IMG/VR virus record: IMGVR_UViG_3300042997_002652
Coordinates: 32,001 to 96,000 of that record
Strand: one strand, 5' to 3'
From: a virus
Lineage: Duplodnaviria; Caudoviricetes
DNA length: 64,000 nucleotides
The notes under the pieces: generated by a model
Seen by the model: the letters and a program-made list of their open reading frames with translations, nothing else
Database searches by the model: none
Told to the model about the DNA's origin: nothing
Part shown: positions 9,189-62,645 of the stretch, in pieces
How the letters are laid out: each line of letters begins with the position of its first letter
Position numbering within the stretch: position 1 is the stretch's first letter
Position numbers and translations under genes: made by a program

Positions 9189-9216
9189 AGTATACACGGT
9201 TATTTAGAAATGTCAA
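9189..9216 (-). promoter_or_regulatory. Sigma70-type promoter for uvsE
   Basis: TTGACA-N16-TATACT with a TG extension. Confidence 0.7.
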
Positions 9217-9230
9217 TAGATTTGATGAGA

Positions 9231-9254
9231 AAGGGGTATATTATTATACCCCTT
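9231..9254. terminator. Intrinsic terminator hairpin
   Basis: AAGGGGTATA-TTAT-TATACCCCTT perfect 10 bp inverted repeat just after the 9260 stop. Confidence 0.65.
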
Positions 9255-9259
9255 ACATA

Positions 9260-10528
9260 TCAATGCTTTAAGAGTAGGGTACTTAGTACGCCCTGAGAGT
9301 TTGCTGTTAGATCGGGTTCACCGGGAGCAATGATAACATTCCATATATTGTTTATAGAATCTTTACCCTTTTTCTCCCATTCATCATAGCTAAGAATAGT
9401 ATTTTTATTTAAACCGTATTTAATTGCTAGTCTGTCTTTAAGAGTATCTAATGTTCCTGGCTGAAGTTGCCATTGTCCACTTGGTCCCTTTTCCAACTTT
9501 CCGTCTTTCTTGAGCAACAAATCTTTGAATAATTCGTCGGGAACAATTCTAGAGTTCTTTGTTTTTTCTAAGTTAGGATCAGTTGCTTTAACTTGTCTTT
9601 CTTGTTGTTTACTAGCACCCTCACTCCAGTTTATCATAAAGTTGTCTGGTTTCTTTCCTAATGCTGCTCCAGCGATTTTAGTGTAAGCATAGAAATTAAC
9701 ATCAGGTATAGATTGAGCCATTTTAAATGCCAAATCCATATACTGCGGACTAAAGAAATCCCCAGCATCGTGCCATCTAATAGTAACACGATATCCGTTT
9801 TTATCTCCTAAACGTTTTTCTTTTTCAATTTCGGTTTTCAATTGATTAAAGAACCCGTCTGGATCATTTAACAAATATGTTAATATTCTACCATCGCTTA
9901 TCCATGCGTTCTTGAACTGAATCTTTCCGCCTTTCATAGCAAAACAATCAACTTTACATGATCCAGCACCCGGACATGTATTTACGATAATCAATTTATT
10001 ATCTGATTCATCAACTGCGATACCAGTTAACGCAGCAAAACCAACGTTAAAGAACTGTTCTAGTTCTCCGCTGGAGTGTTTCATTTTTTCGTTTTCTTTT
10101 AACAGTTCTTTTGGTCTTTGAGACAACACATCAATAACTTTCTTTTCGTCATATCTGTTACCCGCCGCATCGTAATATTCTATTACGCTAGATCGGTGCA
10201 TGTATGGTAATTTATATCTATCTGTCTTTTCTTTACCCGATACATACTTTTCAATACCTTTCTTATCTACTTTAGGATTACCTTGTTTATCTAAGTCAGG
10301 TGTTCCTATGATTCTTTTCATATAATCTTGAAATTCTTGATCACCAAATTCTCTAGAAGGAGCCGAGAGTTTCGTAGCTTCGTCTACAACTTCATCTTCC
10401 GAAATCTCGTCATCACTTAGTTCAGCTTGTACGAATTCTTCTGGTGACATTATCTCTACGCCAGCAGTTGACCCCGGAAGCGACTCTGCCGCTTCATTAA
10501 TAATATCTAAAAGTTTTCTAAAATCCAT
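9260..10528 (-). CDS. GP88-family Fe-S / radical-SAM-like protein with acidic N-terminal extension
   Basis: TCPGAGSCKVDCFA (Cx5Cx3C), IRWHDAGDF and FYAYTK motifs; late promoter GATAAATA at 10552-10559. Confidence 0.6.
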   Translation of the reverse strand: MDFRKLLDIINEAAESLPGSTAGVEIMSPEEFVQAELSDDEISEDEVVDEATKLSAPSREFGDQEFQDYMKRIIGTPDLDKQGNPKVDKKGIEKYVSGKEKTDRYKLPYMHRSSVIEYYDAAGNRYDEKKVIDVLSQRPKELLKENEKMKHSSGELEQFFNVGFAALTGIAVDESDNKLIIVNTCPGAGSCKVDCFAMKGGKIQFKNAWISDGRILTYLLNDPDGFFNQLKTEIEKEKRLGDKNGYRVTIRWHDAGDFFSPQYMDLAFKMAQSIPDVNFYAYTKIAGAALGKKPDNFMINWSEGASKQQERQVKATDPNLEKTKNSRIVPDELFKDLLLKKDGKLEKGPSGQWQLQPGTLDTLKDRLAIKYGLNKNTILSYDEWEKKGKDSINNIWNVIIAPGEPDLTANSQGVLSTLLLKH

Positions 10529-10550: not shown

Positions 10551-11393
10551 CTATTTATCTAAAGTAAGCAGTTGTTCAACAGTATACAACTCTACCATAT
10601 ACGGTGAAACATTTTCTAATACACTTGATGGTAAGTCCCCTTTCCTCCTAGAACCTTCTTTAACTTTAAAGTCACAGTTGTTTACTTGTTTAAATATATC
10701 AACCATTTCTCTTACAGTGTGACCGATCCCGTGCCCTAAGCTTTCTACTTTGTTACTAGGAGTTTCAATAGCTAACTTTAATGCAGTACATATTTCCATA
10801 ACATGTACATAATCTCTAACCGCTGTACCGTCCCATGATTCTCTATAGTCAGTACCAAAGATAGTAAACTCATCAGTGTCTCGTGCTTTCATTAAATTAT
10901 ACATTAAGCCGTCAGGATTAGTTGGCTTGATACCATAATGACTACCGATCACATTATAAAATCTAAAAATAGTATAATCCATTGGCTTGTGTACAGTACA
11001 CATTTCTCTTACACAATCTTCTGCTGCCCGTTTACTAATACCATATGCTGATTCACACCCAACCGCTGCTCCAGTAGATGCAAATATAAAGTTGTTAGTT
11101 GGTATTTTATTCATTACATTTGTTGTACCATTTAGGTTAGTAAAATAGTACAGCATAGGCATTTGTTCACTTTCCCCTACATTAACTAATGCTGCTAAGT
11201 GAATAACAGCGTCATATGGTTCAGTTTGATCTGGGATAGTAAACAGTCTAGTAATGTCTACTTGATAAAACTTTTTGATAGGTACTTGAGGTTCTTTAAC
11301 ATCTAAACCATGTATTTCATATTCGTTTTCTAATAGTTTGCAAAGATGTGAACCAATATACCCTGAGCAACCTGTAATTAAAATCTTTTTCAT
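10551..11393 (-). CDS. NAD-dependent epimerase/dehydratase (GalE-like extended SDR)
   Basis: ITGCSGYIGSH Rossmann motif, VIHLAA, FASTG, YGISK (YxxxK), FRFYNVIG, VRDYVHV. Confidence 0.9.
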   Translation of the reverse strand: MKKILITGCSGYIGSHLCKLLENEYEIHGLDVKEPQVPIKKFYQVDITRLFTIPDQTEPYDAVIHLAALVNVGESEQMPMLYYFTNLNGTTNVMNKIPTNNFIFASTGAAVGCESAYGISKRAAEDCVREMCTVHKPMDYTIFRFYNVIGSHYGIKPTNPDGLMYNLMKARDTDEFTIFGTDYRESWDGTAVRDYVHVMEICTALKLAIETPSNKVESLGHGIGHTVREMVDIFKQVNNCDFKVKEGSRRKGDLPSSVLENVSPYMVELYTVEQLLTLDK

Positions 11394-12745
11394 TATAATC
11401 CTTCAAATAATGCATTTGGTGTATCATCTGTTGGTACAAAAGTTAAATCTTTTGTTAACCATGTATCTTGATCTGTATATATTACTCTAAACTTGTGTTT
11501 ATTAGATAATACGCTTTCAAAGTCCTCTCTTGCTATTTGTGTTCTGTTGAGGTCTTTTATATAGTCTTTGTAATTTACGGTTTCGTAAGTGTTTATCTTA
11601 GCTGTATTAGTTTTTGCTTGTTTAGCTTTAAAGTCAACTAACAACTGTTCCCAGCCTTCTGCAACTTGATCATCTAACGATCTGACGTAATCCAAAGCTT
11701 CAGGAAGTTGATTAATACCAGCTAACGCCAAGATATATTCATGTGCTTGTGATAAACTTGTTTTATGATAGAATTTGCTATCAAAGTTATCTGACCAATC
11801 TTGAGTATCTAGAACTACGCAAGGCATGTGTCCTAAACATTCTAAAAAGGCAAACGGATAGTTTTCTCTTAAACTAGGCATGAAAAATATTTTAGAACTT
11901 TTAATAAAGTCTACTTTTTCACTACCCACTATACCTGCTTTTATTTGATAGTCTGTTATACCTGCTTCTTTAAAAGCTTTTTCAAACTTTTTAGCACCGT
12001 TGGAATTAGTCATTACTTTGCAGGGTAACTTACACTCTTTCATCACTTTAATATATGCTTCAGGGTTTTTACCTTCTTCCCATCTGCCGATAAACAACAC
12101 ACCCGATTTAGTTCCTGCATAGGGTTCTAGTAATTGTCTTTCGCTCATTGGCATTTTTAACAGCTTACAATTAGTAGAACCATGTTTGGTTAATTCGTTG
12201 ATATTTTTTTGACTTTGTGTTCCTATAATAATATCACTAAACTCCATGTGCTTGTTATAGAAGTTGTGATAACTTGATAGAAAAACATCACTACCTTGTG
12301 TTTCTCTAAAGATCATACTGTGTAAATGAGTATAGAACACGATTGGTATGTAGCTGTTTAGAGTCATTGCATAAGCAGCAGACATTGCTTCCTGTGTGTT
12401 ACATATTAGCATATCATAAATGTTTGTTTCAAACCCGATAATAATAGATTTGCGAAAGTTTACTATCTTTTCAAAGTTAATAGTATCACTAAATGCAAAT
12501 GTATTAGTATGGTCAGTGTATCTAAGGTTGTCTGAAGGATAAACAATGTTTGCACCTAATGACTGCAACAGTTCACTAAACTCGTTAGTAGGTTTTTTAT
12601 CTACGATGATATCAACTTTCCATTGTAGTCTTGCACACATTTCAGTAAAACCTTTAGCAAACTGGCCTATCCCGCCGTGAGGGATAAGATGCTGGTCGCT
12701 TATTAAAAATCCAATTCTTTTGTTATATGTTTTTATGTTCCCCAC
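11393..12745 (-). CDS. GT-B (GT4-like) glycosyltransferase with extra C-terminal domain
   Basis: N-terminal PHGGIGQF, LFIGRWEEGKN and the EX7E motif ENYPFAFLE; about 70 extra aa after the GT fold. Confidence 0.8.
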   Translation of the reverse strand: MGNIKTYNKRIGFLISDQHLIPHGGIGQFAKGFTEMCARLQWKVDIIVDKKPTNEFSELLQSLGANIVYPSDNLRYTDHTNTFAFSDTINFEKIVNFRKSIIIGFETNIYDMLICNTQEAMSAAYAMTLNSYIPIVFYTHLHSMIFRETQGSDVFLSSYHNFYNKHMEFSDIIIGTQSQKNINELTKHGSTNCKLLKMPMSERQLLEPYAGTKSGVLFIGRWEEGKNPEAYIKVMKECKLPCKVMTNSNGAKKFEKAFKEAGITDYQIKAGIVGSEKVDFIKSSKIFFMPSLRENYPFAFLECLGHMPCVVLDTQDWSDNFDSKFYHKTSLSQAHEYILALAGINQLPEALDYVRSLDDQVAEGWEQLLVDFKAKQAKTNTAKINTYETVNYKDYIKDLNRTQIAREDFESVLSNKHKFRVIYTDQDTWLTKDLTFVPTDDTPNALFEGL

Positions 12746-13578
12746 CTATTCCCAAAAAGCGGGATATGAAGTCTATCGCTGTATCTTAATCCATGTTTCA
12801 TAGCTAGTTCAGCTACCCGTTGATTGTTTAACCTATATACGCTTTCTACGCCACCGATTGGCATCAAGTAAACAGGACCTTTGAACCCTTCTTTTCTATA
12901 CAATTCAGTTACTTCTATAGCTTCCATAGCATCTTCATCGGTTGCTATAACAAACTTTAAGTAAGTGTATCCTGCATTTTGATAATCTACAACGATTTCG
13001 GGAATAATAGCATCTTCACGTTTTTCACCTGAACAACTTAATTTAGGACTTACTGAAAATGTGATTTCTCTATCCCAATGCTGAGCCGCCCACTCATTCC
13101 TTAAGTAATGTCTAAACTCTTTAAACAATGGTTGTGTGCCATTAGTTTCAAACGTAATCTCTTTTAATGATTGCATCTTTGGATGATTTAATAAGTCAGG
13201 ATAAGATCGTTGCCACCCTAACAAAGGTTCACCACCAGTAATAACCAAATGTTCGTCACGCCATTCTTTAAATGGCAACAGATTAACTATTGCTTCAGCA
13301 ATCGCATCAGTAGTAAGTTTAGGGGATAAGTGTTTAAAGTTTACATCCCAGCTTGCGTAACTGTCACAACCAGTCGTAACTAATGGCAAGTCATTATAGT
13401 TTTTATAGCTTTTAGGATGAATTAGATTTCTTTCGTTACTGATTTCACCTTTAGGCATACCAAATCCTGAACAAGTGAAGTTGCAACCAAATGTTCGTAA
13501 GAATACACTTGGTACACCAGTATATCTGCCTTCTCCTTGTACTGAATAAAATAGTTCGCTGATCTTTATATTAGACAT
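12733..13578 (-). CDS. queE: 7-carboxy-7-deazaguanine synthase (radical SAM)
   Basis: ISELFYSVQGEG, FLRTFGCNFTC...CDS, LVITGGEPLL, FETNGT, SVSPKL, RLHIPLFGN. Confidence 0.92.
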   Translation of the reverse strand: MSNIKISELFYSVQGEGRYTGVPSVFLRTFGCNFTCSGFGMPKGEISNERNLIHPKSYKNYNDLPLVTTGCDSYASWDVNFKHLSPKLTTDAIAEAIVNLLPFKEWRDEHLVITGGEPLLGWQRSYPDLLNHPKMQSLKEITFETNGTQPLFKEFRHYLRNEWAAQHWDREITFSVSPKLSCSGEKREDAIIPEIVVDYQNAGYTYLKFVIATDEDAMEAIEVTELYRKEGFKGPVYLMPIGGVESVYRLNNQRVAELAMKHGLRYSDRLHIPLFGNRWGT

Positions 13579-13774
13579 TTGTATCTCGTTTAGTTTTCAG
13601 GGTCGGGTTCTCTACCGGTCTGCATGATAACTGACTATCACACAAACCGTATCTAGTAGTTTCTGTTATTATCTCATAACCGTTGTAAATTACAACCTTT
13701 TCGGTAGTTTCTGTTTCTAAAAACTTTTTAAAAGAACCAAGTGTGTCCCATTTTAACTTTTTGGGTACATACAT
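13571..13774 (-). CDS. Small hypothetical protein
   Basis: Fills the gap between the PRTase and queE; likely start MYVPKK coupled to the PRTase stop. Confidence 0.5.
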   Translation of the reverse strand: MYVPKKLKWDTLGSFKKFLETETTEKVVIYNGYEIITETTRYGLCDSQLSCRPVENPTLKTKRDTNV

Positions 13775-14322
13775 TACTTCCACCAGTTTTCCCAAGAAAA
13801 CTCTATCCAAGAATCTTCTTCAGCTTTGTTAATAGACAAAGAAGTATAGGCTATATCTTTAAAGTCGCTGGCTTCATTGTTTATCAATGTAGCAAACTTT
13901 ACATTATGATTCCATACTGTATCCCAGGCATACCTTTCATTTGGCATACATGACGATTCCCAGTCTTTCTTAATCCATTTGATAGTTTCACCCGTATCAT
14001 TGATATCATCTACAATCAAGATATTCTTTCTACGTGATACGTCCCAACGTGACTTTTCAGTTTGTCTTATTTCAGTTGACAAGTAGCCAAAAGCATGTTC
14101 AGGCATCCAAGCATTACACTCTTGTTGCGCATGGTCTCTTAAACTAACTCGCAATGTTTCCATTGGCACATTATAATACTGACTGATTAAAAGTGCAGGA
14201 AGTAAACCACCTCGCGTAATACCCACAACGTAGTCAGGTTTATATCCAGACAAAGTTATTTGTCTGATGATATCCATAGTCATTTTTTGTACATCTGAGT
14301 TTGATAACGTTACTGTGTTCAT
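13774..14322 (-). CDS. Type I phosphoribosyltransferase (purine PRTase/Gpt-like)
   Basis: VVGITRGGLLPA and the PRPP-binding loop ILIVDDINDTGET; ends WIEFSWENWW like Gpt; start moved to MNTVTLS (AAGGA SD). Confidence 0.85.
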   Translation of the reverse strand: MNTVTLSNSDVQKMTMDIIRQITLSGYKPDYVVGITRGGLLPALLISQYYNVPMETLRVSLRDHAQQECNAWMPEHAFGYLSTEIRQTEKSRWDVSRRKNILIVDDINDTGETIKWIKKDWESSCMPNERYAWDTVWNHNVKFATLINNEASDFKDIAYTSLSINKAEEDSWIEFSWENWWK

Positions 14323-14323
14323 A

Positions 14324-14788
14324 TTATCCTTCATAAATTGCTGAGTTAGCATCATGTTCAAATACTTCTACGCTTTTAACAGATACTGTTTTGTTTAATA
14401 ATGTGCCTGCTTTTTGGCTTTCGTCTAAAATTTGCGTCATTTTCTTAAAAGCCATTTCAGCAAATCGTTCACATCCAACTGCTGGAACAATTCGCAAATC
14501 AGCTACATGTGTGGGCAAATTCTTTAACTGTTCAAGTTCGGGATCATCTTCAGCTACTAACAAAGTATGATCAAACATGTGTTCTAGCCACTGTTTAAAT
14601 TCTTTAAGCCCGCCAAAATCCATGACCCAGTTTCTTTCATCCAAGCTTTCACATTCAAAGATGATTTTAACACCTATTGAATAGCCATGAAGTAGCGAAC
14701 AATGACTATGAGTAGAACGCCACTGTCTAAAGCAACAGCTTAGTCCCCTGTCATTACCATATGTTTTTGTACTATAAAACTTACCCAT
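14324..14788 (-). CDS. queD: 6-carboxy-5,6,7,8-tetrahydropterin synthase
   Basis: CSLLHGYS (CxxxHG), WVMDFGGLK, FDHTLLV, GCERFAE, VEVFEH. Confidence 0.88.
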   Translation of the reverse strand: MGKFYSTKTYGNDRGLSCCFRQWRSTHSHCSLLHGYSIGVKIIFECESLDERNWVMDFGGLKEFKQWLEHMFDHTLLVAEDDPELEQLKNLPTHVADLRIVPAVGCERFAEMAFKKMTQILDESQKAGTLLNKTVSVKSVEVFEHDANSAIYEG

Positions 14789-15245
14789 TCTTTCTCTCCG
14801 ATTCTGTTACTCGTTTACGTAAACTACTAGAGCTAAAACTATGATTTCTTTTATTATAAATGATTTCTATGTCAATTGCAAGACAATATTCTTTACCAGT
14901 GAAATCTTTGTCCATGTACTCTGCTCCCAATATACGAACATCTACTGGAAGTATTTTTAGTAAATCAAGCAAGTCTTGTTCAGTTTGGTATACCACAACT
15001 TCATCTACAAACCTACATGAACTTAATTGTATCTGTCGTTCAACGATACTTTGTACTGGTTTGTTTTTGGTGTCAGGTCTATCTATAGTTGGATCAGTTT
15101 GTAATCCAGCGATCAGGTAGTCGCAGTGATTTTTAGCTTCAGCTAACATTGCTATGTGTCCGGCATGAAGAAGGTCAAAAGCAGAAAATACTATGCCTAT
15201 CTTTTTTCCTTCTTCTTTTAATTGTCTAATTACATTAAAGATCAT
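14781..15245 (-). CDS. TagD/RfaE-like cytidylyltransferase (HxGH family)
   Basis: FSAFDLLHAGH, LIAGLQTD, PVQSIVER, SFSSSSLR. Confidence 0.88.
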   Translation of the reverse strand: MIFNVIRQLKEEGKKIGIVFSAFDLLHAGHIAMLAEAKNHCDYLIAGLQTDPTIDRPDTKNKPVQSIVERQIQLSSCRFVDEVVVYQTEQDLLDLLKILPVDVRILGAEYMDKDFTGKEYCLAIDIEIIYNKRNHSFSSSSLRKRVTESERKNG

Positions 15246-15928
15246 TTCTGAGGTTTTCCCATTCGTGCAATGCTTAGAAACTCTGCTCTTGCTGCTGGAT
15301 CAGTTTTGAAACCTCCACCTAATTTACAAGTTACTGTGCTTGACCCAGTGTCTTCAACACCGCGGCTCTTAACACAATAATGCTGTGCATCTATCATAAC
15401 AGCAACATGTTCAGTTTCTAAAATATAGGAAAGTGCATGGAATACTTGTTCAGTCAGTCTTTCTTGGATCTGAGGACGCTTACTGAAATACTCAACAATC
15501 CGATTGATCTTTGAAAGACCCAGAACCTTTTCCTGGGGTACGTATGCTACAGTAGCAAGACCATCAATGATTACAAAGTGATGTTCACAATTAGATTGTA
15601 CGTTTACGTTGCGTTCAACGACCATTTCGTCATAGCCCATTTTGTTTGCAACAGTAGTACATTTTGGGAATGCATCATAGTCTAGACCCCAAAAGATTTC
15701 ATTAACATACATCTTAGCAACACGCTTGGGCGTTTCTATAAGACTGTCATCAGATAAATTTAACCCGAGGGCTTGCATAATATCGGTAAACTTAGCTTCA
15801 ATGATTTCAATTTTGTCTGTGCGACTTAGATTGTTTTCAACTTGAGGAGTTTCAACTCCCATTTTGACTAGATATTTGTGTATCTTTTGACCCAACTCTG
15901 GATCACATTTTACTTTATTAAATGACAT
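15242..15928 (-). CDS. folE: GTP cyclohydrolase I
   Basis: ETPKRVAKMY, SNCEHHF, GLSKINRIVEYFSKRPQIQERLT, HYCVKSRGV. Confidence 0.96.
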   Translation of the reverse strand: MSFNKVKCDPELGQKIHKYLVKMGVETPQVENNLSRTDKIEIIEAKFTDIMQALGLNLSDDSLIETPKRVAKMYVNEIFWGLDYDAFPKCTTVANKMGYDEMVVERNVNVQSNCEHHFVIIDGLATVAYVPQEKVLGLSKINRIVEYFSKRPQIQERLTEQVFHALSYILETEHVAVMIDAQHYCVKSRGVEDTGSSTVTCKLGGGFKTDPAARAEFLSIARMGKPQK

Positions 15929-15946
15929 TTATATTCTCCTTTTGAA

Positions 15947-16003
15947 AGCATCTAACGTTAATGCTCAACGACCTTTCGGTATTTGCTACCTTTGTGTAGC
16001 AAA
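15947..16003 (-). promoter_or_regulatory. Three-hairpin leader upstream of folE
   Basis: UUUGCUAC/GUAGCAAA (8 bp), ACC-GAAA-GGU and AGCAU/AUGCU stems just 5' of the AAGGAG SD. Confidence 0.35.
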
Positions 16004-16008
16004 GATAT

Positions 16009-17112
16009 TTATCTCTTGTCAAGAAACACCGAATTAAATTGTTTGTTCACTCTAACAAATGTTGTACACTTTGACAAGTCTTTTAGGCTCGTTGCACCAA
16101 CATAAGTACAAGTACTGCGAACCCCACCTAAGATATCTTGTACTGTTTTAGCTACTGGACCTTTGTATGGAACCTTAACAGTCCTACCTTCTGAACTACG
16201 ATATTCTGCTACCCCGCCATGATGTTTAGTCATAGCAGTATCGGAACTCATACCATAAAACTGAACAAACTGCTTCTTTTCTTCAAGCTTTCCCAAACGA
16301 TTACCGGTTTCAGGGTCAAAGATTATTTGATTGGTTTCGTATACTTCTTCAATTATTTCTCCGCCACCTTCTGTGTGACCAGCAAGCATACCGCCTAGCA
16401 TTACAAAATCTGCGCCACCGCCGAATGCTTTTGCTATATCACCAGGACAAGTACAACCACCATCAGCAATGATATGACCGCCCAAACCGTGTGCTGCGTC
16501 CGCGCATTCAATAATGGCTGATAGTTGAGGATACCCAACACCTGTTTGAATACGAGTAGTGCAAACACTACCAGGACCAATACCCACTTTAACAATGTCT
16601 GCTCCACGTAAAATTAACTCCTGTGTCATATCTGCGGTAACTACATTACCTGCAATAATAGTTTTAGTTGGACATAATTTTCTAACTTTAGCAACAAACT
16701 CACCAAAGTGTTCTGAATATCCGTTAGCTATATCAATACAAATAAACTGTATCATGTCAGGATACTTATAAAGAATACTTTGTAACTTTGTAAAGTCACG
16801 ATCACTAGTACCAGTACTGATAGCAGTATTGTAAGAAAAGAATTTTGAAAAATTATCTTCCAAATCTTCTAAAGAATAACTTTTAACTAAGCAAGTAATC
16901 ATATTATATCCAGCAAGCGCAACTGCTATGTCAAAAGTACCAACACCATCCATGTTTGCAGCTAGGATAGGCACACCAGTCCAATTTGCGTTACTGTGCT
17001 TGAACTGATAAGTTCTTTCCAAACTTACTTCTTTTCTGCTAGACAGTGTTGATCTTTTTGGACGGATTAGAACATCACTGAAATCTAGTTTTACTTCATT
17101 TTCAATACGCAT
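16009..17112 (-). CDS. guaC: GMP reductase
   Basis: [70 protein letters not shown]. Confidence 0.95.
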
Positions 17113-17113
17113 A

Positions 17114-18313
17114 TTAGTACTTGTTTTCCTTTGTGTGTTTTCTATAATCTGTAGACATACGTAACCATTGCTCGCCTTTGCCTTCTATGATGTCACAAAT
17201 TCTATCAACAGTTTTGTCTGTCCAATCACTGATTTTGCCCATGTTTTTATGAGGTTTATCCAACAAAGATTCTAGTTTGCTGATCATATCTTCTATAGAC
17301 CAGGGCACATACATTCTTTCATGATCGTTAGCAAATACTTCAGGGAAAGAACGATACGCAGGGAATAAGACATTACATCCTAGTGCGTCAGCTTCACTTA
17401 CAGTATTACTAGTCCAATCTTGTAGTGCAGTATTAACTAAAACTCTAGAGTCTGTGAGTAAACGATAGTACTCATTTTTAGACAAGTTTTCATAAATCGT
17501 AAGCAACTTTTCTTCTTGCATAGCTCTAGCCATATCAACAAATTCTTGTTTGTTACTACGCAACGTTGAGCCTGTAAATATAGAAAATTCTATTTCACCA
17601 AACATTTCTTTGGGATATTTAGCATACCATTCTTTGATTAACTGAAGATAAAAGTCTGGATTCTTTTCTTGATCCCAACGTGAAGAAAAGCATACGCGCA
17701 TTTTGCGTTTATTGAATAAGATTAGGTTATGATCTACACGTTCTCTAACTTCTTGCTTATTAAATGCTAAACCAGATACGTTGTAAATGTTTGCAGTCCA
17801 TCCTGCTACTTTCATGTGTGCTACCATTTCTTCGTTTGATGCTAATACAGCACCTTTAGAAATAGAAACAATAGTGTTGACCATTTGTTCGTATTCGCTC
17901 ATCCACTTTTGCATACCCCAAACATGAACAAAGTCATCTGGATCAATAGTTTGTGCTAAACAGCGAACAAAGATACGAGGTCTTAGATTTTCTGGCACTT
18001 GAGTGATAATATATCCCAAGCTTTCAAAACCGGGCTGAAACATATCTTCAAAGTAAATTACGTCTTCATTTGTTACTTCACCCTGCTGCATCATACGAAC
18101 CAAGTTCATCATTTGACTCATAGCAAAGTAACTACGTCCGTGTGCATCTAAAACTTGACCTACTACAATTTGGTTAGAGTCATCAAGAGTTTCGCCCGGA
18201 ACATAAACTACTTTCATCCTTCTATGATCAAATACTCGCTTGTTCCATTCAGTTAATTGAAGTGTGTACCTTGCTTCGTAACTTTCAAGCCCCATGTAAA
18301 ACAGTTTTTGCAT
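17114..18313 (-). CDS. GT-B fold glycosyltransferase
   Basis: [29 protein letters not shown] (D/E-x7-E-like), PAYRSFPE. Confidence 0.7.
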
Positions 18314-18331: not shown

Positions 18332-18361
18332 AAAGAATGGGCTTGAAAGCCCATTCTTTTT
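18332..18361. terminator. Intrinsic terminator hairpin
   Basis: AAAGAATGGGC-TTGAAA-GCCCATTCTTT. Confidence 0.75.
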
Positions 18362-18664: not shown

Positions 18665-19108
18665 TCATCGTGTTAAGCAATTATATTCTATTTCACAACC
18701 GTTTTCATTATCTTCGGCAACAGAGATTACTATTTTTCTCCCAGAATAACGAGTTGCAATTACTTCGTACAAATCATCAGCAATCATTTCGCAACTTTTA
18801 TGATTAAGTTCCAAAACACTATTCTTATACTGATTTTCTAACCAGCGTTTGAATTGGATAAATTCAATATCTCGGTCATTATGGAAAACTTGAATAGCTA
18901 CCTTAAAGTAGAAAATATGTCTATGAGGCCAACCTAAAAAGCTAACATCATACTCATCTTTAGTTTTTAGATTAGGATCAGTGCTAGCATCAGGATAACA
19001 ATGAATACCTTCCTTTTGAAAAGTTACCCAAATCATACGAGTAGCCTTATTTTTGATTTGATTTCTTTGTTCTATCATAGCTATTTCTCTTTGATTAACT
19101 GCACTCAT
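18665..19108 (-). CDS. dpdL: QueD-like T-fold protein, DpdL-like (candidate CDG decarboxylase)
   Basis: LGWPHRHIF fits LxxxHRHxF, which I recall as the DpdL signature; also DIEFIQFK, SCEMIA and VAEDNENG T-fold elements; lies in a folE-queD-queE cluster. Confidence 0.7.
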   Translation of the reverse strand: MSAVNQREIAMIEQRNQIKNKATRMIWVTFQKEGIHCYPDASTDPNLKTKDEYDVSFLGWPHRHIFYFKVAIQVFHNDRDIEFIQFKRWLENQYKNSVLELNHKSCEMIADDLYEVIATRYSGRKIVISVAEDNENGCEIEYNCLTR

Positions 19109-19327: not shown

Positions 19328-20884
19328 TTAACTAATACTAAATAAATCAGGATTACCCCACTGCGGTAATACTTTCTTTTCTAACTTATCTATTACCATT
19401 TTATCATGAAGGTCATCACCCTCAAAATTATCCGTAAGTGTAGTCATGTTGTTTACTGCTTTCTTACCAGAAAAGCCCTGACTTCCTGACTGCATTTGCA
19501 TCCAAAACTTGTTATACTGTTCAATAGTATCTAAACTTTCTTGTCTAGTTTTTTTACTAAAGATTTCATCTACGATGTCATTAAAGTGTTTGGGTTCAAA
19601 CTTGTTCATAATCATTTTTGGCATAATGCCCTGCTCGTACCTACGATTAGCTTCTTGAACAGCATAGATGTGTTGATACACATTATGGGCTTGAACTAGT
19701 GTATAACTCAAAGTATCCCAACTTGTTTTAGTTTCTTTACCATGCTGTCCCAAAAAGCCATGACCCCTATAACACAAGTCCTTAATAAGCATTTTATCAG
19801 TTACAGGAGAATCAGTAAATATTTTATGGATGCCGTCAGCTAAAACTGCGTCACTAAACTTTCTATTATCTGTATCATAGTTTTTATTTTCAGCAGTTTT
19901 TTCCATTGAATAGGACCATTTCTTATCATGTTCAATAGAATTATTAAAGTAAACCAAACCTTTTGCTGCTGCGAAAAACGGGCTAGCACAGTCAAATGTA
20001 ATTTGCAAGTTTGGATTGTGATACTTTCTAACTGCACGTTGAATGTCAGTAAACAGAACCGCATACTCTAAGATACTAGTACCCAAACAGTGAATAAGAT
20101 CGTGTTTACCTGTTTCTAGTAATCCATCGTAAATCATGTTTACTATACGTTTGAGCATCAAGTGAATGTCAATTTTATTCTGACCACCAAACGCCCAACC
20201 GTTAAAGTGATTAGTTGGATATACTTTTGGATCACAGTACTTTTTCATTTCAGCATACCATTCATCACTTTGAGTATGAGTTAATCCTTGAAGTACGTTT
20301 AATAACTTACATTCGCCTGTTCTGTTATTGATAAAATACTCATTGTTGATATGAGTAGCTGCAACAGCTTGTTCTATTGTAGAAATACCGTGCTTGTCAA
20401 GTAAGTGTTTGTTTCTAAGAGTTTGAGTAGGAACGTCAAGACACATACCATAGTCCATATAAGTATCCATCCATTTTAGTACTAGTTGACGCTGCTTCAT
20501 AGCTTTAGGACAGTTAGGATCTTTCCAATCAGCTGGCCATTGCCCCTTCATAATCTGAAATCCACCTGAGTCGCCTAACATGAAAGTACCCTTTTCACGC
20601 TTTCTGATAATTGACTCACTTGGATCATCTTTAGTAATGTCTAGATTAGCGTGACCTGCAGAATACAAGCCCCATTTGTACTTGTACAAACCCTGAGTAG
20701 AGTTCAAGAAGTTAAGTGGTTCTACGTCACCATTAAACCCTTGAGGAATTCTAGCAGCATCAAAGTACTGCTCACCTTCTCGTTGTTTGCCTAATCCTGC
20801 GATAAAGAATGAAGACACTGCCGGTAAGAACAGTGCCCATTCTGGATTGTGTGCGTTAGTAAGATTATGCTGGATCTGATCCAT
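19328..20884 (-). CDS. dpdA: TGT-fold guanine transglycosylase, DpdA-like
   Basis: TGT motifs in the correct order: LGDSGGFQ, CLDVP, VLQG, GWAFGG, IHCLG, ITFDCASP. No CxCxxC zinc site of tRNA TGTs; lies next to the Que genes. Confidence 0.7.
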   Translation of the reverse strand: MDQIQHNLTNAHNPEWALFLPAVSSFFIAGLGKQREGEQYFDAARIPQGFNGDVEPLNFLNSTQGLYKYKWGLYSAGHANLDITKDDPSESIIRKREKGTFMLGDSGGFQIMKGQWPADWKDPNCPKAMKQRQLVLKWMDTYMDYGMCLDVPTQTLRNKHLLDKHGISTIEQAVAATHINNEYFINNRTGECKLLNVLQGLTHTQSDEWYAEMKKYCDPKVYPTNHFNGWAFGGQNKIDIHLMLKRIVNMIYDGLLETGKHDLIHCLGTSILEYAVLFTDIQRAVRKYHNPNLQITFDCASPFFAAAKGLVYFNNSIEHDKKWSYSMEKTAENKNYDTDNRKFSDAVLADGIHKIFTDSPVTDKMLIKDLCYRGHGFLGQHGKETKTSWDTLSYTLVQAHNVYQHIYAVQEANRRYEQGIMPKMIMNKFEPKHFNDIVDEIFSKKTRQESLDTIEQYNKFWMQMQSGSQGFSGKKAVNNMTTLTDNFEGDDLHDKMVIDKLEKKVLPQWGNPDLFSIS

Positions 20885-21220
20885 TATTGTCCTTTAGTAG
20901 TATTTTTACTATCTGTATCTTTTCTTCAATATCAGCTTTTTGTTTTAAAAGATCAGCAAAAGTGGGATTGTCTTTTAATTTTTCTATTGCTTTTTCTTCT
21001 GCCATTTTTTACTGGCCCAGTCCATAATCATTCGTGTGTTATAGTCAATATCTATATTAACTGTAGATGATATTTTATACCAAGACGAACCATCGTAAAC
21101 TTCCATATCTGTCCCGTTATATCTAACCATGCCAGCACTATGATTATTCAAACTTACATACGGGCCTGAAGAGCCGCCAGTACTTAATAATCCCAAACCT
21201 GTTGCTATCTTTGTAATCAT
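20865..21220 (-). pseudogene. Conserved small protein split by a 1-nt frameshift at an A6 run
   Basis: ORF 20984-21220 ends ...DWASKKWQKKKQ*. One more A at 21005-21010 joins it to MAEEKAIEKLKDNPTFADLLKQKADIEEKIQIVKILLK (21005 to 20865), giving a coherent coiled-coil tail. Confidence 0.55.
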
Positions 21221-21951
21221 TTTGACATTGCAGGAAGAATGTAAGAGTACACAGCTAAGCCTGAATCTACTGTGATTTCAGCAGCACCCTGATCAGAGAT
21301 TTTAACTGTTTTATCGCCGGGCAAGTCCATGATAGAAAGAAACACTTTTACAGGCCATTGCCAAGCTTTGGTCATAGTACCAGTTACACCTGCATGAAAC
21401 ACAAAGTTACCTGAGTGAGTAGAAGGATCACCAAAATAAATTTTCAAGTTTCCGCTTTCTGTTTTAGTTGAAAACGTTACTTCTTCACTGTTAGCAGAAG
21501 CTTGCATTTTCAAACGCATAATACCAGCTACTGTGGGTTCAAATTCTACGTTCCAAGCTGCACCCTTAAATGTAACAGTTTTTACTTTGCTTTCTACAAT
21601 TTCTTTAGACATAAGTCTGTAATCATTTACAAAGTCGTTATTCTTTGTAGCAAAGTGAATAGTAGTAGGAACGTCTTCACTATCTCTTGTTTCTCTAACA
21701 ACACTGATAGAAGCATTTTCGTCATACTCAGCTTCAAAACCTAAAATAGTTTTAAGCTTGCCTAGATTGGGCATACCAAAAGTACCAATAGCATCAGCGA
21801 TTGGATGCTTAAAAGTGCCACTGATAATAACGGTCTTATCTTCTGCCATTGCTTCGATCTTAGTAACTTGATCAGTGCCTGTTACTTTTACTAACTCCAC
21901 TACTCCCAAGCCATGTGTATGCTGGATCAAATCTTGTAAAAAATCTTTCAT
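21217..21951 (-). CDS. DNA polymerase sliding clamp (gp45-like)
   Basis: 244 aa alternating beta/alpha clamp-like pattern; GTFGMPNLGKLKTIL; ends YSYILPA; adjacent to PolB. Confidence 0.65.
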   Translation of the reverse strand: MKDFLQDLIQHTHGLGVVELVKVTGTDQVTKIEAMAEDKTVIISGTFKHPIADAIGTFGMPNLGKLKTILGFEAEYDENASISVVRETRDSEDVPTTIHFATKNNDFVNDYRLMSKEIVESKVKTVTFKGAAWNVEFEPTVAGIMRLKMQASANSEEVTFSTKTESGNLKIYFGDPSTHSGNFVFHAGVTGTMTKAWQWPVKVFLSIMDLPGDKTVKISDQGAAEITVDSGLAVYSYILPAMSK

Positions 21952-22032: not shown

Positions 22033-24735
22033 TCAACCAAAAGAAAACAAACTATCAAATGTAGTATTTGTGTCTGTGTTACTTTTCAAGTCCCAGTTTA
22101 GTACACCTAATAGGTTTTCAATCTTTTTATCTACTAGTGTAGTTTCCATTAATGAGTCATCAAACGGTAATTGTTTGAACCAATCTGGAAGTCTAAGCTC
22201 ATCTGTAGGATAAGCAATGGAAGTGAATCCTAACGGATTGGTTTTAAGCTTACACACAACAACTTTCATACCATCTAAAATAGTCATAGAATAATTGTCG
22301 CTATGTGCCTTTTTAAGAAAGTTCCAATTGATAGCTGCACGAACATGCCCCGGCATAGTAGCCTTACCTTTTTTACTTCTAGCTTCTAGTTCGCCGTAAA
22401 AAGTAAGCTTGTTTACTGACTTAGGAGAACCCTTAGTCCAACTAGGCTGTTCGGATAGTTCTCGCTTAAAATCTTTGATACGTTCTATAATATCTTCTTT
22501 GGACTTATTGCTTAGAACCATAGTAAGAACGTCTAGTAAAAACTTTTGAATATATTTAGGCGTATCTGATCTTTTTAGTTCAAGACCCATAGCTTTAATA
22601 TCACCCGTTTTACCATTTACGTCTTTACGCTTGCCTTCTTTGTCATAGATATTTACCGCATAACGCTTTTTCTTGATAAACAAGCCCACGTCACCTATGA
22701 TTTCTCTGCCACCTTTAATGATAGCACCGTTCTTTCTTGGACAATGACATGCACGTTCCATGAACCCGGGAAAGCTATCGTTAACTTGATCAGCAATATT
22801 ATCATATAATTGGACAACTAGTTCTTTGTTCCATTCCATCTTACCTGCGTTAACTTCTTGCTCAATAATAGGCCAAGCTGAAAAATAACCTGAGTCGGTA
22901 TCAGAGTATATCATAGATTCGCCTTCATGATTGTAAGCACCTGTTATAATCTCATTGATCTGAGAATTCATGTGCTTAACAATTTGTCTACCAGTTAAAG
23001 TAACTGACTGACCCAATCGTTTGTCATAGAACCTACAGTGTTCATTTAAGAGTGCACCATAAGCAGAGTTAAGCAAAATCTTTCTTACCAACTGTCGCTT
23101 GTCATAATACTCTTTATCTGTTTCAGTAGTAGCTTCTTTTAGTTTTTTCTGCAAGTCTTTACGTTCAGCATACCAACGAGTAAGTAGACCGGGAATAACA
23201 CCTTCTTGATCACTTCTAAATATAGTACCATTAGCTGATAACATATACGGACTGTGTGAATCAAAAATCATTTTCCATATTTCAGCAGCAGACATTTCTT
23301 GTGATCTACCATCTTCAAAGTCAACAATAAGCATTGTGCCGCGTTCTTGATTCATTACTGAAGTATATTCTAGTGAACCAAACAATCCTTCCCAAAGCAA
23401 TGAACTCATGTCAAGTTCATCATCTTCGTCATAGTTTCGCTTTTCTTTAGCTAGTTCCATTGCTCTATCGTGTAAGAACTTTTCAGTATGTGTTTGTCTA
23501 ATTTGCCCTACAATTGTTTCTGGGGCCATGTTCAAAGCACGAATTGTTGAAGGATACAGTGAGTTAATATCTATAGCTCCCACCCAGTAATGCAATCCTT
23601 TCTTTGGTTGGGCAACATAAGCACCAGCAGCAGCCATTTCGCCTGAATGACCTCTTTGCTTATCTGGCACGATAAGACCTCTAGCATGTGCTTCATTATA
23701 GATAGCCATTTCAATCATAGCTACTGAACCCATTACTGTTGGTAACAATACTGTATTTTCGTGTGCTAGTTGATTAGCCAACTCTAAGAATTTTAGCTTG
23801 TTGTGAATCTTTACTACAAGCATAGTGTCTTGGCGGTTATATCTAATGAATTCTTTGAAGTCACGATTGTATAGTTGATCTAGTGTGCCTTCATATGGAG
23901 TTTTTGTTTCACCAACTTCCATTTCCCCGATAGCATCTAACGAGTAACTGTGTCTGGATTCATAGTTGTACTTTTTATACAACTGAAGATAGTCCATATG
24001 AATTCTACCTACTAAGTCATATGTTTGTTCTTCTTTACCAAATCGTTCGTAAGTTCTTGGTTTAGGTAATTGCCCCATTAAACAGAACTTTCTAGTATCA
24101 TCTTTACTCATGATCTTAGTTACTCTGTTTACTATATATGGAATATCAAATCCTTCTGAGTTCCATCCTGTTAACACATCAGCATCTTCAATTATTTGAA
24201 AGAAAGTTTCAAACATTTCTATTTCACTACGAAACAAAAAAGTGTTTGGAAATTCTGCTACTAGCTCTTGTGCTGTTTCGTCTGTTATGTGTTTAGGTGG
24301 AATAGCCAAACATATAAGTTGATCTAACCAATCCAAGTACAATGCAATTGCTGTCACTGGACTAAAAGGATCACTAGTAGGCGCGTATCCGCGTTCTGGG
24401 GAAAAATCAACCTCAATGTCAAAAAACGCTGTGTGAAGTTTTGGAGCTTCTACACCTAAATAGTTGTCAGATAAACATCTAAAAACAGTGTTAACATCGC
24501 TTTCAAATAACTTCTTACCCGAGTGTATACGCTTTTCTTTTTCAAATTCGCTTTTCTTTCTAGTAGAAAACCTACTTAAAGAGTCACGATAGATAGAACG
24601 ATACTTGCCTTTAGAGTCGGGATAATAAAATACATAGTTAGCAGGGAACTCCTGATAGCTTCTAGTGCCATCAGAAGTTCTTTCTATCACATGTATGCGA
24701 TCATTTTTTGCATCATTGATTGCATCAACATACAT
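22033..24735 (-). CDS. Family B DNA polymerase (gp43-like)
   Basis: Exonuclease motifs FFDIEV, GWNSEGFD and YNRQD; polymerase motifs DINSLYPS, KILLNSAYG, YSDTDS and KKRYA; start moved to MYVDAI. Confidence 0.96.
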   Translation of the reverse strand: MYVDAINDAKNDRIHVIERTSDGTRSYQEFPANYVFYYPDSKGKYRSIYRDSLSRFSTRKKSEFEKEKRIHSGKKLFESDVNTVFRCLSDNYLGVEAPKLHTAFFDIEVDFSPERGYAPTSDPFSPVTAIALYLDWLDQLICLAIPPKHITDETAQELVAEFPNTFLFRSEIEMFETFFQIIEDADVLTGWNSEGFDIPYIVNRVTKIMSKDDTRKFCLMGQLPKPRTYERFGKEEQTYDLVGRIHMDYLQLYKKYNYESRHSYSLDAIGEMEVGETKTPYEGTLDQLYNRDFKEFIRYNRQDTMLVVKIHNKLKFLELANQLAHENTVLLPTVMGSVAMIEMAIYNEAHARGLIVPDKQRGHSGEMAAAGAYVAQPKKGLHYWVGAIDINSLYPSTIRALNMAPETIVGQIRQTHTEKFLHDRAMELAKEKRNYDEDDELDMSSLLWEGLFGSLEYTSVMNQERGTMLIVDFEDGRSQEMSAAEIWKMIFDSHSPYMLSANGTIFRSDQEGVIPGLLTRWYAERKDLQKKLKEATTETDKEYYDKRQLVRKILLNSAYGALLNEHCRFYDKRLGQSVTLTGRQIVKHMNSQINEIITGAYNHEGESMIYSDTDSGYFSAWPIIEQEVNAGKMEWNKELVVQLYDNIADQVNDSFPGFMERACHCPRKNGAIIKGGREIIGDVGLFIKKKRYAVNIYDKEGKRKDVNGKTGDIKAMGLELKRSDTPKYIQKFLLDVLTMVLSNKSKEDIIERIKDFKRELSEQPSWTKGSPKSVNKLTFYGELEARSKKGKATMPGHVRAAINWNFLKKAHSDNYSMTILDGMKVVVCKLKTNPLGFTSIAYPTDELRLPDWFKQLPFDDSLMETTLVDKKIENLLGVLNWDLKSNTDTNTTFDSLFSFG

Positions 24736-24736
24736 A

Positions 24737-25000
24737 TTACTGGACCCTGCCAACAGTCTCCAGAATCGTGTTTAAATCTTCATGATCTTGATTAGTTTGT
24801 GTAAGTGATGACTTGTATGCAGTCTTTACTGCCCGTTTTAGTACGGATGGCTTGATATCTAGCTCTTCTGCAATAGCTTTTATCGTATCCGATAATCCGC
24901 CGTTAAGCGTTTCTATCTCATTTAATACTGAAAGACCCTCATTTATAATCTGGGTCAATTTAGTTTTTTCGTCTTGATTAAATACTCTACCGTTTGACAT
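24737..25000 (-). CDS. T4 DsbA-like small dsDNA-binding protein
   Basis: 87 aa helical; LSDTIKAIAEELDIKPSVLKRAVKTAYK. Confidence 0.6.
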   Translation of the reverse strand: MSNGRVFNQDEKTKLTQIINEGLSVLNEIETLNGGLSDTIKAIAEELDIKPSVLKRAVKTAYKSSLTQTNQDHEDLNTILETVGRVQ

Positions 25001-59727: not shown

Positions 59728-60078
59728 ATGAATATAAGACCTATATGTCCAAAATGTAATACATGTGTTTGTGCTATCAATTATAAGAAAAATAATGTGT
59801 ATCATTATAGAAGCACATGTAATAGCTGCGGTAGGAAAAAGCCCAGAAAAAAACCCAGAACTTTTCTTTGGCAAAAAAGCGGTTATAAGAAAAAAACAAT
59901 GTGTGACTTATGTGGATTTAGAAGTGTATACGCTACTCAAATAGTAGTGTACCATATCAACGGGGATTTAACTGATATTAAGTTAAACAATCTACGCAGT
60001 ATATGTTTATGCTGCGTAGAAGTTGTCAAAAGAAAAGAAGTGACTTGGAAGAGGGGAGATTTACAAGTTGACTATTAA
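59728..60078 (+). CDS. Zinc-finger / degenerate HNH protein
   Basis: CPKC, CNSC, CDLC, VYHINGD...NNLRSICLCC; TAAATA-N5-ATG. Confidence 0.7.
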   Translation: MNIRPICPKCNTCVCAINYKKNNVYHYRSTCNSCGRKKPRKKPRTFLWQKSGYKKKTMCDLCGFRSVYATQIVVYHINGDLTDIKLNNLRSICLCCVEVVKRKEVTWKRGDLQVDY

Positions 60079-60678
60079 GTTTAATGATGCAAACAAATCT
60101 TCTTTAGTGCCGTTATTAGCTAGGTAACAATCATACTCTAATCCTACAGAACTGTATTCGCTAGCATGAACGCCTCGAGGCGGTAAGCAACCTTCAGTAC
60201 CTTGATTGAATCTAACAGCATCATCATACCAGTTCGGAAGTTCACCGCGTTCAATACGAATCAATTTTCCATTTAGTTTTTTTACTACACTTAGTTCGTT
60301 AGCAAATCTAGCATCAGTTATTACGATATTACCTTCGCATTTAAGAATTTTGTTTTCTAACGATGCTACCCAAATATCTTTATGAAAACCATGTCTACAA
60401 ACTTCAGTACCCCAGTATTGTAATATCCATCTAGGAGTAAGATGGGGCATGTTTAATCTAGCAGCCCACCATGGATCAATTTGTTCTCTCCATTGTCTAC
60501 TCTCTAAAGTTTCACCTTCAAGTAAAACACGATCCCACCCAAATACTACTGCGATAGCATCTTTTAACGATCCTGCAAAGCTTAGTTTAGTAAAATTATG
60601 ATTGTTGATTAAGTATTCTGCTGCTGTATCTTTACCCGAGCCTATGAAACCCGAGATAGATATAATTTTGTTGGGCAT
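60061..60678 (-). CDS. Deoxynucleoside monophosphate kinase (T4 gp1-like)
   Basis: ISGFIGSGKDT, SFAGSLKD, TPRWILQYWGTEVCR, VITDARFANE, HASE. Confidence 0.9.
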   Translation of the reverse strand: MPNKIISISGFIGSGKDTAAEYLINNHNFTKLSFAGSLKDAIAVVFGWDRVLLEGETLESRQWREQIDPWWAARLNMPHLTPRWILQYWGTEVCRHGFHKDIWVASLENKILKCEGNIVITDARFANELSVVKKLNGKLIRIERGELPNWYDDAVRFNQGTEGCLPPRGVHASEYSSVGLEYDCYLANNGTKEDLFASLNLIVNL

Positions 60679-61998: not shown

Positions 61999-62217
61999 TT
62001 ATTCTATAAGTTTAAATATCAAAAACAAATCTTTAAGGGGATGATTCCATGGATCTTTTACACCATATGCTGTACAGCCAAATCTAGTATCATCGTCTAA
62101 GTGATCTTTTCCTTTGGTATAGTTTTCCATGTCAATACAAGTAAGTACTGTACCTTCAGGAATCTTTGCTAATTCTTCTGGTGTAAAAAGATAAAGATCA
62201 TCCTCCCATTTTTGCAT
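61999..62217 (-). CDS. Hypothetical protein
   Basis: 72 aa; DDDTRFGCTAYG. Confidence 0.6.
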   Translation of the reverse strand: MQKWEDDLYLFTPEELAKIPEGTVLTCIDMENYTKGKDHLDDDTRFGCTAYGVKDPWNHPLKDLFLIFKLIE

Positions 62218-62645
62218 TATAAATCATTCTCTTTTCTATTTTCAGAATAGAATGGATCAAACGTGCCGCCAGGATATCTTGCTTCAAGCTTTTTAACGTT
62301 TTCAGCAATCACATCGTTTGGATCTAAACCTAATGCTCTGCAAGCATTGATCCAATACCAAATAATATCGCCTAGTTCACGTTTCATGTGGTAAACGTTT
62401 TCATCACTCAATTCTTTACCTTGAAAAATGATTTTTTTGTTTACCTCGATAAACTCTCCGCTTTCTGCTGCTAAACCCAAACATGCAGTAATCAGCAACG
62501 GAACATTTACTGCAGGCCCAGTTACATCTTCTTTATTTTGCGAATTTAGCTCTTCACACCTTTGCTGAAAAATGTGAAAATGATTGCTTGGGTTACTAGT
62601 TACAACCTCTACAAAATCTTTGTACTTGTTTAAATCAATATTCAT
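62217..62645 (-). CDS. mazG: MazG-like NTP pyrophosphohydrolase
   Basis: LGLAAESGEF..VNKK...ELGDIIWY (ExxE...ExxD), NVKKLEARYP. Confidence 0.85.
   Translation of the reverse strand: MNIDLNKYKDFVEVVTSNPSNHFHIFQQRCEELNSQNKEDVTGPAVNVPLLITACLGLAAESGEFIEVNKKIIFQGKELSDENVYHMKRELGDIIWYWINACRALGLDPNDVIAENVKKLEARYPGGTFDPFYSENRKENDL

Follow-up and report, generated by a model that had tools for sequence, protein, structure and literature searches.

Related deazaguanine systems

In phage phiST, 7-deazaguanine (dDG) replaces all of the deoxyguanosine (dG) (PMC10516641). Full guanine replacement in phages such as phiST is now credited wholly to post-replicative base exchange by DpdA3, and the attempt to rebuild the pathway in E. 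coli failed: DpdL and DpdA of two phages, ACP17 among them, gave no dDG in that host (PMC10516641). Here we describe a phiST-type locus in a 64,000-nt window, bases 32001–96000 of the 267-kb IMG/VR virus record IMGVR_UViG_3300042997_002652 (record G+C 36%), in which a purine phosphoribosyltransferase (PRTase) and a GMP reductase, GuaC, are wired into the deazaguanine operon. We tentatively read the two enzymes as an optional accessory arm of DpdA base exchange, a sink that would recycle guanine through GMP to IMP. The system is of a known kind. To the extent that the literature could be searched, no earlier description exists of the variant in which a PRTase, alone or together with GuaC, is built into it. 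The main texts of Cui et al. and Hutinet et al. contain none of the terms 'phosphoribosyl', 'GMP reductase' or 'salvage', and literature searches on phage deazaguanine systems gave nothing relevant on a PRTase, phosphoribosyl pyrophosphate (PRPP) or a pre-replicative route. A near-identity DNA search against isolated phages gave no match.

The window resembles phiST (Cui et al. 2023, PMC10516641) in carrying FolE, QueD and QueE without QueC nearby, a DpdL homologue, and an enzyme resembling tRNA-guanine transglycosylase (TGT) between the genes for 7-carboxy-7-deazaguanine (CDG) synthesis and the polymerase. phiST also has a PRTase of its own, which falls in the same Pfam family as the window protein and shares 30% identity with it. 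However, the phiST PRTase lies ~18 kb from the CDG genes, whereas the window PRTase is inside the operon, and the window operon adds GuaC, two glycosyltransferases, a nucleotidyltransferase and an epimerase. The DpdA-like proteins differ as well, the one in the window being 518 aa long with a family profile that does not detect phiST DpdA3. In phiST (KC821604.1; locus L089, 5412–7574) the neighbours of DpdL are a MazG-like NTP pyrophosphohydrolase and a small P-loop protein (AAA_18, kinase-like), after which comes a 259-aa hypothetical gene that is taken to be DpdA3. Nucleotide-acting enzymes thus stand beside a supposedly base-level pathway in this phage.

The other system of comparable gene content is the tubercidin cluster of Streptomyces tubercidicus, likened here by gene families and published descriptions. 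It shares five enzyme families with the window, namely TubC/A/B (GTP cyclohydrolase I, QueD and QueE), TubE (PRTase) and TubD (GMP reductase homologue), the last two side by side. Tubercidin clusters have no QueC and are built on CDG, which is their last free-base intermediate. The PRTase TubE is specific for CDG and does not accept 7-deazaguanine; TubD was tried only on GMP, used as a surrogate, deamination of 7-deaza-GMP being its proposed role (Liu et al., PMC6112128). Toyocamycin biosynthesis, with ToyH (ACF06639.1) and ToyE, is a further system of this kind. Unlike the tubercidin cluster, the phage operon has no UbiD decarboxylase, Nudix hydrolase or transporter, its candidate decarboxylase is the T-fold protein DpdL, and it includes a DNA-type transglycosylase. 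Its product is presumed to be modified DNA rather than a secreted nucleoside. Bacterial salvage by Gpt (XGPRT) and GuaC uses the same folds and catalytic motifs, and the phage GuaC scores above the equivalog thresholds. The phage PRTase, in contrast, falls under the Gpt and Hpt cut-offs, belongs to a virus-only clade and is embedded in a DNA-modification operon.

Organization of the operon

All genes surrounding the PRTase and GuaC share the minus strand and lie close together, overlapping or separated by no more than 80 nt. In transcriptional order the upstream part runs PolB, a clamp-like protein, orf518, orf147, small open reading frames (ORFs), a GT-B glycosyltransferase and GuaC; FolE, a PF01467 nucleotidyltransferase, QueD, the PRTase, orf79 and QueE follow, and the distal end consists of a second glycosyltransferase, an NAD-dependent epimerase, a PF17338 protein and UvdE. 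The deazaguanine and purine genes are as follows.

19328..20884, minus: DpdA-like transglycosylase orf518, 518 aa, predicted TGT fold (AF2 model, Foldseek, motifs)
18665..19108, minus: DpdL homologue orf147, a QueD paralogue (LGxPHRHIF motif, hhalign)
16009..17112, minus: GuaC, predicted class-1 GMP reductase, 367 aa (NF003470, TIGR01305)
15242..15928, minus: FolE, GTP cyclohydrolase I (PF01227 206 bits; NF006824 316 bits, above cut-off)
14781..15245, minus: nucleotidyltransferase, RfaE domain II / TagD-like (PF01467 46 bits; TIGR02199 81.6 bits, below cut-off; phrog_7878)
14324..14788, minus: QueD, 6-carboxytetrahydropterin synthase (PF01242 69 bits)
13774..14361, minus: purine PRTase, 195 aa (PF00156 46.8 bits, E 2.5e-12)
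13571..13810, minus: orf79, small 79-aa protein (no family match)
12733..13578, minus: QueE, CDG synthase (radical SAM; five QueE equivalog models)

QueE matches the five equivalog models with E-values of 2e-15 to 1e-9, every score being below cut-off. The first-pass annotation of the window placed a Gpt-like PRTase between queD and queE and guaC directly upstream of folE, and both placements are correct. The PRTase ORF overlaps QueD and is separated from QueE by orf79, and 80 nt lie between the end of GuaC and the start of FolE. That gene list had passed over the nucleotidyltransferase between FolE and QueD as well as orf79. The latter is also present in the loci L003–L005, L099, L103, L148 and L176, where PRTase identity is 40–97%.

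A phage-specific purine phosphoribosyltransferase

The PRTase has the features of a type I PRTase: a PF00156 match above cut-off, a PRPP-binding loop and an RGG pyrophosphate loop. Of the NCBIfam models, the xanthine PRTase model PRK09177 fits best, at 35.1 bits against a cut-off of 138, and TIGR01203 gives 21.6 bits (cut-off 150); the protein falls far under all Gpt, Hpt and Apt equivalog cut-offs. Because the PRK09177 score lies so far under its cut-off, the protein is best described as Gpt-like but not as a Gpt orthologue. In a profile search against the Protein Data Bank (PDB) the family matched the Pyrococcus horikoshii purine PRTase 1VDM (E 9e-23), Sulfolobus HGXPRT (1e-18) and E. coli XGPRT (2e-12). 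The AlphaFold (AF2) model (pLDDT 89) matches purine PRTases in Foldseek with probability 1.00 and a TM score of ~0.75 on the target, the nearest structures being 1VDM, Sulfolobus HGXPRT/APRT and E. coli XGPRT.

Among 34 aligned family members, R50 and G51 are invariant and G52 nearly so; D118–T126 (DDINDTGET), W185 and E191 are invariant. In the alignment with E. coli XGPRT, which covers the PRPP loop and the C-terminal base-binding segment, the third Asp of DDxxDTG corresponds to D92 and the C-terminal Trp and acidic residue to W134 and D140. In 6-oxopurine PRTases, residues at these positions probably touch N7 and the guanine edge. By sequence and structure the PRTase belongs to a phage-specific clade within the XGPRT/archaeal purine-PRTase group and is predicted to be of the 6-oxopurine type.

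The viral character of the clade is evident from its distribution. The database holds 2427 homologues, and the nearest ESM Atlas clusters are 95–100% viral. A scan of 185,579 prokaryote species, one genome per species, found four matches, all on contigs of metagenome-assembled or single-amplified genomes. Two of these contigs hold phage cluster genes (QueD and QueE in one; orf518, DpdL, FolE and QueE in the other), and the remaining two (Marinoscillum) showed the PRTase alone.

Linkage and dispensability of the PRTase

A scan of viral contigs identified 76 PRTase loci, which reduce to 33 lineages after dereplication at 90% identity. QueE lies within 10 kb of the PRTase in 27 of these lineages, FolE in 23/33, DpdL in 20/33, the DpdA-like gene in 19/33 and GuaC in 8/33. 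The lineages without QueE are mostly short contigs, and the placement of the PRTase by QueE is far beyond chance. Three kinds of isolated phage carry the gene. In the phiST group, an annotated phosphoribosyl transferase stands beside RNase H, ~1.3 kb upstream of the ribonucleotide reductase (RNR) gene. The jumbo phage PA5oct has the order PolB, clamp, orf518 homologue, DpdL, PRTase, QueE, and the cyanophage BUCT-ZZ01 has QueE, PRTase, x, QueD, FolE. phiST, PA5oct and BUCT-ZZ01 are culturable relatives that carry a PRTase, which is gp064 in phiST and EST35_0321 in PA5oct.

The PRTase is nonetheless dispensable. Six sister loci with the window's gene order, glycosyltransferase, GuaC, FolE, nucleotidyltransferase, QueD, QueE and glycosyltransferase, have no PRTase by tblastn or by the family profile, and in three of the six the spacing between QueD and QueE is 220–400 nt. 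Across eight complete genomes of DpdL-bearing phages, a PF00156 protein is present in three (phiST, BUCT-ZZ01 and PA5oct), and the same search found none in ACP17, Phosso, RHph_I1_18, BUDD and Bakedbeans. Small ORFs of ACP17 and Phosso were considered as hidden PRTases and rejected (hhalign probability <1%). Because the core of FolE, QueD, QueE, DpdL and the DpdA-like enzyme stands without it in sister lineages, the PRTase is an add-on to the system.

The PRTase and GuaC are found together, each without the other, and both missing, which makes up all four possible combinations. In several lineages the two genes are directly adjacent, with the PRTase 3–440 nt upstream of GuaC or with GuaC overlapping the start of the PRTase, an arrangement that suggests a two-step route from base to nucleoside monophosphate to IMP. 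Two loci, L025 and L042, carry the two genes 2 kb apart and have no QueE or DpdL in fragments of 62 kb and 41 kb, respectively. In L025 (9576–15308) the neighbours of the PRTase are a gamma-glutamyl cyclotransferase-like gene on one side and an FNR-type oxidoreductase on the other, with GuaC and NAD synthase downstream.

The deazaguanine core

No QueC was found near the operon. The sole QueC-like match in the record is a weak one, a 231-aa PP-loop ATPase ~190 kb away (C1:239415–240110; L001 1024–1719) that scores 30 bits against the QueC cut-off of 150 and also has weak similarity to asparagine synthase. FolE, QueD and QueE are all present without QueC nearby, the gene set of the phiST type, and because of this absence 7-deazaguanine (dDG) is the expected end product. 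The operon is accordingly predicted to be a phiST-type 7-deazaguanine DNA-modification system, with DNA as the presumed target of the DpdA-like enzyme.

The DpdL signature LxxxHRHxF, and a proposed role of this QueD paralogue as CDG decarboxylase, were described by Cui et al. 2023 (PMC10516641). orf147 bears LGxPHRHIF, which fits the signature, matches phiST gp040 with an hhalign probability of 98.9%, and has tblastn matches in phiST, ACP17 and PA5oct.

The DpdA-like gene was recognised by fold and motifs because the Pfam TGT search gave no match in this genome, phiST, BUCT-ZZ01 or PA5oct. The AF2 model of orf518 (pLDDT 83) matches Zymomonas mobilis and human TGT in Foldseek with probability 1.00 (E 1.7e-7). 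Across the 15 members of the family, D105, S106, G107, G108 and Q110 of DSGGFQ and F297/D298 of FDC are invariant and C299 is nearly invariant; PDB titles that name the mutants Y106F and C281S place both motifs at the TGT catalytic positions. orf518 has the TGT fold and catalytic motifs; its family profile found no match among PDB sequences and, as noted above, fails to detect phiST DpdA3. A second candidate for DpdA, the GP88 protein (9260–10528), was rejected, its tblastn matches being only unrelated hypothetical, gp37/gp68-like and minor-head proteins. In BUCT-ZZ01 a 416-aa hypothetical protein (L080, 12278–13528) adjoins FolE, and its ADSGGLQ aligns with DSGGFQ of the orf518 family. The hhalign score between the two is not significant, and this protein may be a further divergent DpdA-like type.

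GMP reductase

GuaC scores 559.9 bits against NF003470 (cut-off 397) and 536 bits against TIGR01305 (cut-off 492), and it matches human GMPR1 with an E-value of 6e-137. Its catalytic loop GPGSVCTTR and its GMSS and SEG motifs are identical to those of Salmonella GuaC, and it is by these features a predicted canonical class-1 GMP reductase. The window protein has an insertion of ~21 aa before FYGMSS, at about residues 256–280. Insertions of 10–25 residues at this point are common to its clade (L003, L004, L007, L025 and L042) and absent from Salmonella GuaC and other phage GuaCs.

The link between GuaC and the deazaguanine cluster is loose and not specific. At least 596 viral stretches match the GuaC pattern. 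Among the 80 closest relatives (66–87% identity), a deazaguanine gene is in reach in 44 and none in 36; at the 28 loci flanked on each side by 8 kb or more, cluster genes are present at 12 and absent at 16. Close relatives at 66–73% identity sit in unrelated auxiliary-gene islands, one of which (L107, 9399–15446) contains an Rv2179c-like exoribonuclease, Hsp70, Hsp20, heme oxygenase and a ferredoxin-dependent bilin reductase. Phages Cr30, XacN1 and RAS14 carry GuaC, and QueE was not found in them; in Xoo-sp13, whose genome was not searched for QueE, GuaC lies away from deazaguanine genes. G+C around guaC in these four phages is 38–50%, and their hosts are high-G+C bacteria. Where GuaC shares a stretch with the cluster, it lies inside the operon, in several arrangements. 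A small GuaC tree, with one cellular sequence, has long branches. The first-pass annotation had held that its explanations would be weakened if both genes were just as common in relatives lacking dpdA, and on this point the outcome is divided: the PRTase is tightly bound to deazaguanine genes, and GuaC occurs about as often away from them, phages without QueE included.

Possible roles of the PRTase and GuaC

A TGT-type enzyme inserts a free base in place of guanine, and the guanine is set free. In the reading that we tentatively favour, which falls somewhat short of an even chance, FolE, QueD and QueE would make CDG, DpdL as the proposed decarboxylase would act on it, and the TGT-fold DpdA-like enzyme would swap guanine in DNA for the deazapurine. 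The PRTase would couple the expelled guanine to PRPP to give GMP, which GuaC, where present, would reduce irreversibly to IMP. Removal of guanine would take away a competitor for re-insertion by the transglycosylase, and the recycled purine could return to the pool that feeds FolE via GTP and supply adenine nucleotides for a genome of 36% G+C. By an arithmetic estimate, guanines released per progeny genome would be of the order of 10^5 if a ~350-kb genome of 36% G+C were fully substituted. The first-pass annotation had offered guanine recycling as one of two explanations. It is the most parsimonious one and has indirect support from the catalytically intact TGT-fold enzyme beside the operon, from the conservation in the PRTase of residues typical of the 6-oxopurine type, from its optional distribution and from its pairing with GuaC. 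GuaC keeps all the canonical catalytic motifs, and a shift of the pool from G to A would fit the 38–50% G+C around guaC in isolated phages with GuaC but without QueE, whose hosts are high-G+C. Dispensability of the PRTase fits a step that host enzymes could cover. If correct, guanine recycling would explain how base exchange is driven to completion and how its purine cost is contained in nutrient-poor seas.

Several observations weigh against recycling. The PRTase forms a phage-specific clade far removed from cellular Gpt, which could just as well reflect a new substrate. The combination of GTP cyclohydrolase I, QueD, QueE, PRTase and GMP reductase without QueC is the tubercidin core, in which the PRTase is CDG-specific. 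Among isolated phages, the PRTase is found in DpdL-bearing ones only, and none was found in the fully substituted Campylobacter CP220-type and Flavobacterium immuto-type phages, where recycling would be equally useful. GMP reduction, moreover, competes with the GTP supply for FolE.

These points lead to the second explanation of the first-pass annotation, that the PRTase turns a deazapurine into a nucleotide. As a viral counterpart of TubE, the PRTase would couple PRPP with CDG or with its decarboxylated form, 7-deazaguanine, the 7-deaza-GMP analogue so formed would pass through kinases and the phage RNR to the dNTP pool, and PolB would incorporate the deazapurine before or alongside DpdA exchange while GuaC lowers the competing G nucleotides. 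Part or all of the 7-deazaguanine would then enter DNA pre-replicatively. There is a biochemical precedent, which the first-pass annotation did not name: TubE is a proven CDG-specific PRTase in a cluster with the same core, decarboxylation follows ribosylation in the tubercidin pathway, and TubD supplies a GMP reductase homologue. Also consistent with this route are the phage-only PRTase clade embedded in CDG operons, the PRTase near RNR and the MazG and P-loop proteins by DpdL in phiST, where replacement of dG by dDG is 100%, the ADG nucleoside detected in the cytoplasm of CP220-infected cells, and the RNR, dNMP kinase and MazG encoded in the present genome. The failure of heterologous DpdL and DpdA to yield dDG would fit too, but the missing PRTase alone cannot explain that failure because ACP17 itself has none. 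Since the sister operons and five of the eight complete DpdL-bearing genomes also lack a PRTase, the route cannot be obligatory, which weakens the earlier proposal but does not refute it. In addition, a base-exchange enzyme with intact catalytic motifs is nearby, the N7-directed Asp characteristic of 6-oxopurine PRTases is invariant, TubE itself rejects 7-deazaguanine, and GuaC would drain the GTP that FolE needs. On balance we regard a TubE-like role as rather doubtful. It would mean that natural DNA hypermodification follows a scheme taken from nucleoside-antibiotic biosynthesis and that a pre-replicative route exists, whereas published work on DpdA3-type phages rules out such a route by assumption; that a PRTase could feed deazapurines into the nucleotide pool is a possibility which that work leaves unconsidered.

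The parallel can be extended to both enzymes acting in series on the deazapurine, from CDG or deazaguanine through 7-deaza-GMP to 7-deaza-IMP, from which host PurA and PurB would make 7-deaza-AMP and hence 7-deazaadenine in the DNA or pool of GuaC-bearing lineages. TubD and ToyE are the GMP reductase homologues for this step in tubercidin and toyocamycin biosynthesis, and both the direct adjacency of PRTase and GuaC in several phage lineages and the position of GuaC inside the CDG operon of the window and many relatives are in keeping with it. However, GuaC is unchanged from housekeeping GMP reductases and has no sign of specialisation, its close relatives occur in unrelated auxiliary islands and in phages without QueE, and it occurs independently of the PRTase in all four combinations. 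No PurA was found in the 267-kb record, and a literature search found no report of 7-deazaadenine in natural DNA, the base to which 7-deaza-IMP could lead. Such a pathway is thus very improbable.

GuaC may, alternatively, be uncoupled from the modification system, as a free-standing auxiliary gene that shifts purine pools from G to A in AT-rich phages, with only the PRTase tied to deazaguanine. We consider this unlikely as well. The large number of viral GuaC matches and the 36 of 80 close relatives with no cluster gene in reach (16 of the 28 loci with full flanks) speak for it, as do the Hsp70, Hsp20, heme oxygenase and bilin reductase island and the phages Cr30, XacN1, RAS14 and Xoo-sp13, with their G+C of 38–50% around guaC. 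Against this, where GuaC shares a stretch with the cluster it sits within the operon, often by the PRTase and in several arrangements, which would be rare under random insertion.

Other features of the locus

The remaining genes mentioned above are listed below.

10551..11393, minus: NAD-dependent sugar epimerase (PF01370)
11393..12745, minus: second GT-B glycosyltransferase (PF00534)
17114..18313, minus: GT-B glycosyltransferase directly upstream of GuaC (PF00534 26 bits)
21217..21951, minus: sliding-clamp-like protein orf244 (conserved neighbour of the module)
22033..24753, minus: family B DNA polymerase, PolB (PF00136/PF03104)
60061..60678, minus: T4-type dNMP kinase (PF21448 50 bits)
62217..62645, minus: MazG-type nucleotide pyrophosphohydrolase (PF03819 37.7 bits)

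Interspersed among the CDG genes are both GT-B glycosyltransferases, the nucleotidyltransferase and the epimerase, an arrangement that suggests a sugar-decorated deazapurine. In BUCT-ZZ01 (L080, 10945–15096) homologues of both glycosyltransferases, with 43% and 58% identity, flank FolE, the DSGG-motif protein and DpdL, the 58% identical one corresponding to the glycosyltransferase upstream of GuaC. A glycosyltransferase also stands beside DpdL in PA5oct, as a weak homologue, and in Phosso, as an annotated gene.

The clamp-like gene and PolB adjoin the module with synteny kept in most loci. Sinorhizobium phage Phosso has a 246-aa gene annotated as a sliding clamp in the same position as orf244, a correspondence of position and annotation only. 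A scan for promoters and terminators gave site numbers not above those in shuffled sequence. Between orf75 and the glycosyltransferase, at 18332–18359, is a perfect 12-bp hairpin that is flanked by T-rich sequence on both strands and may divide the DpdA/DpdL unit from the unit of glycosyltransferase, GuaC and FolE.

At the end of the operon (8137–10528) the 422-aa PF17338 (GP88) protein is accompanied by a UvdE-type UV endonuclease, and both are retained in the closest relatives L003, L099, L103 and L106. Elsewhere in the window, at 26498–26941 and 31403–36994, are a ferritin-like protein, a second cytidylyltransferase-like protein (422 aa), a ClpB-type double AAA+ chaperone and DnaJ.

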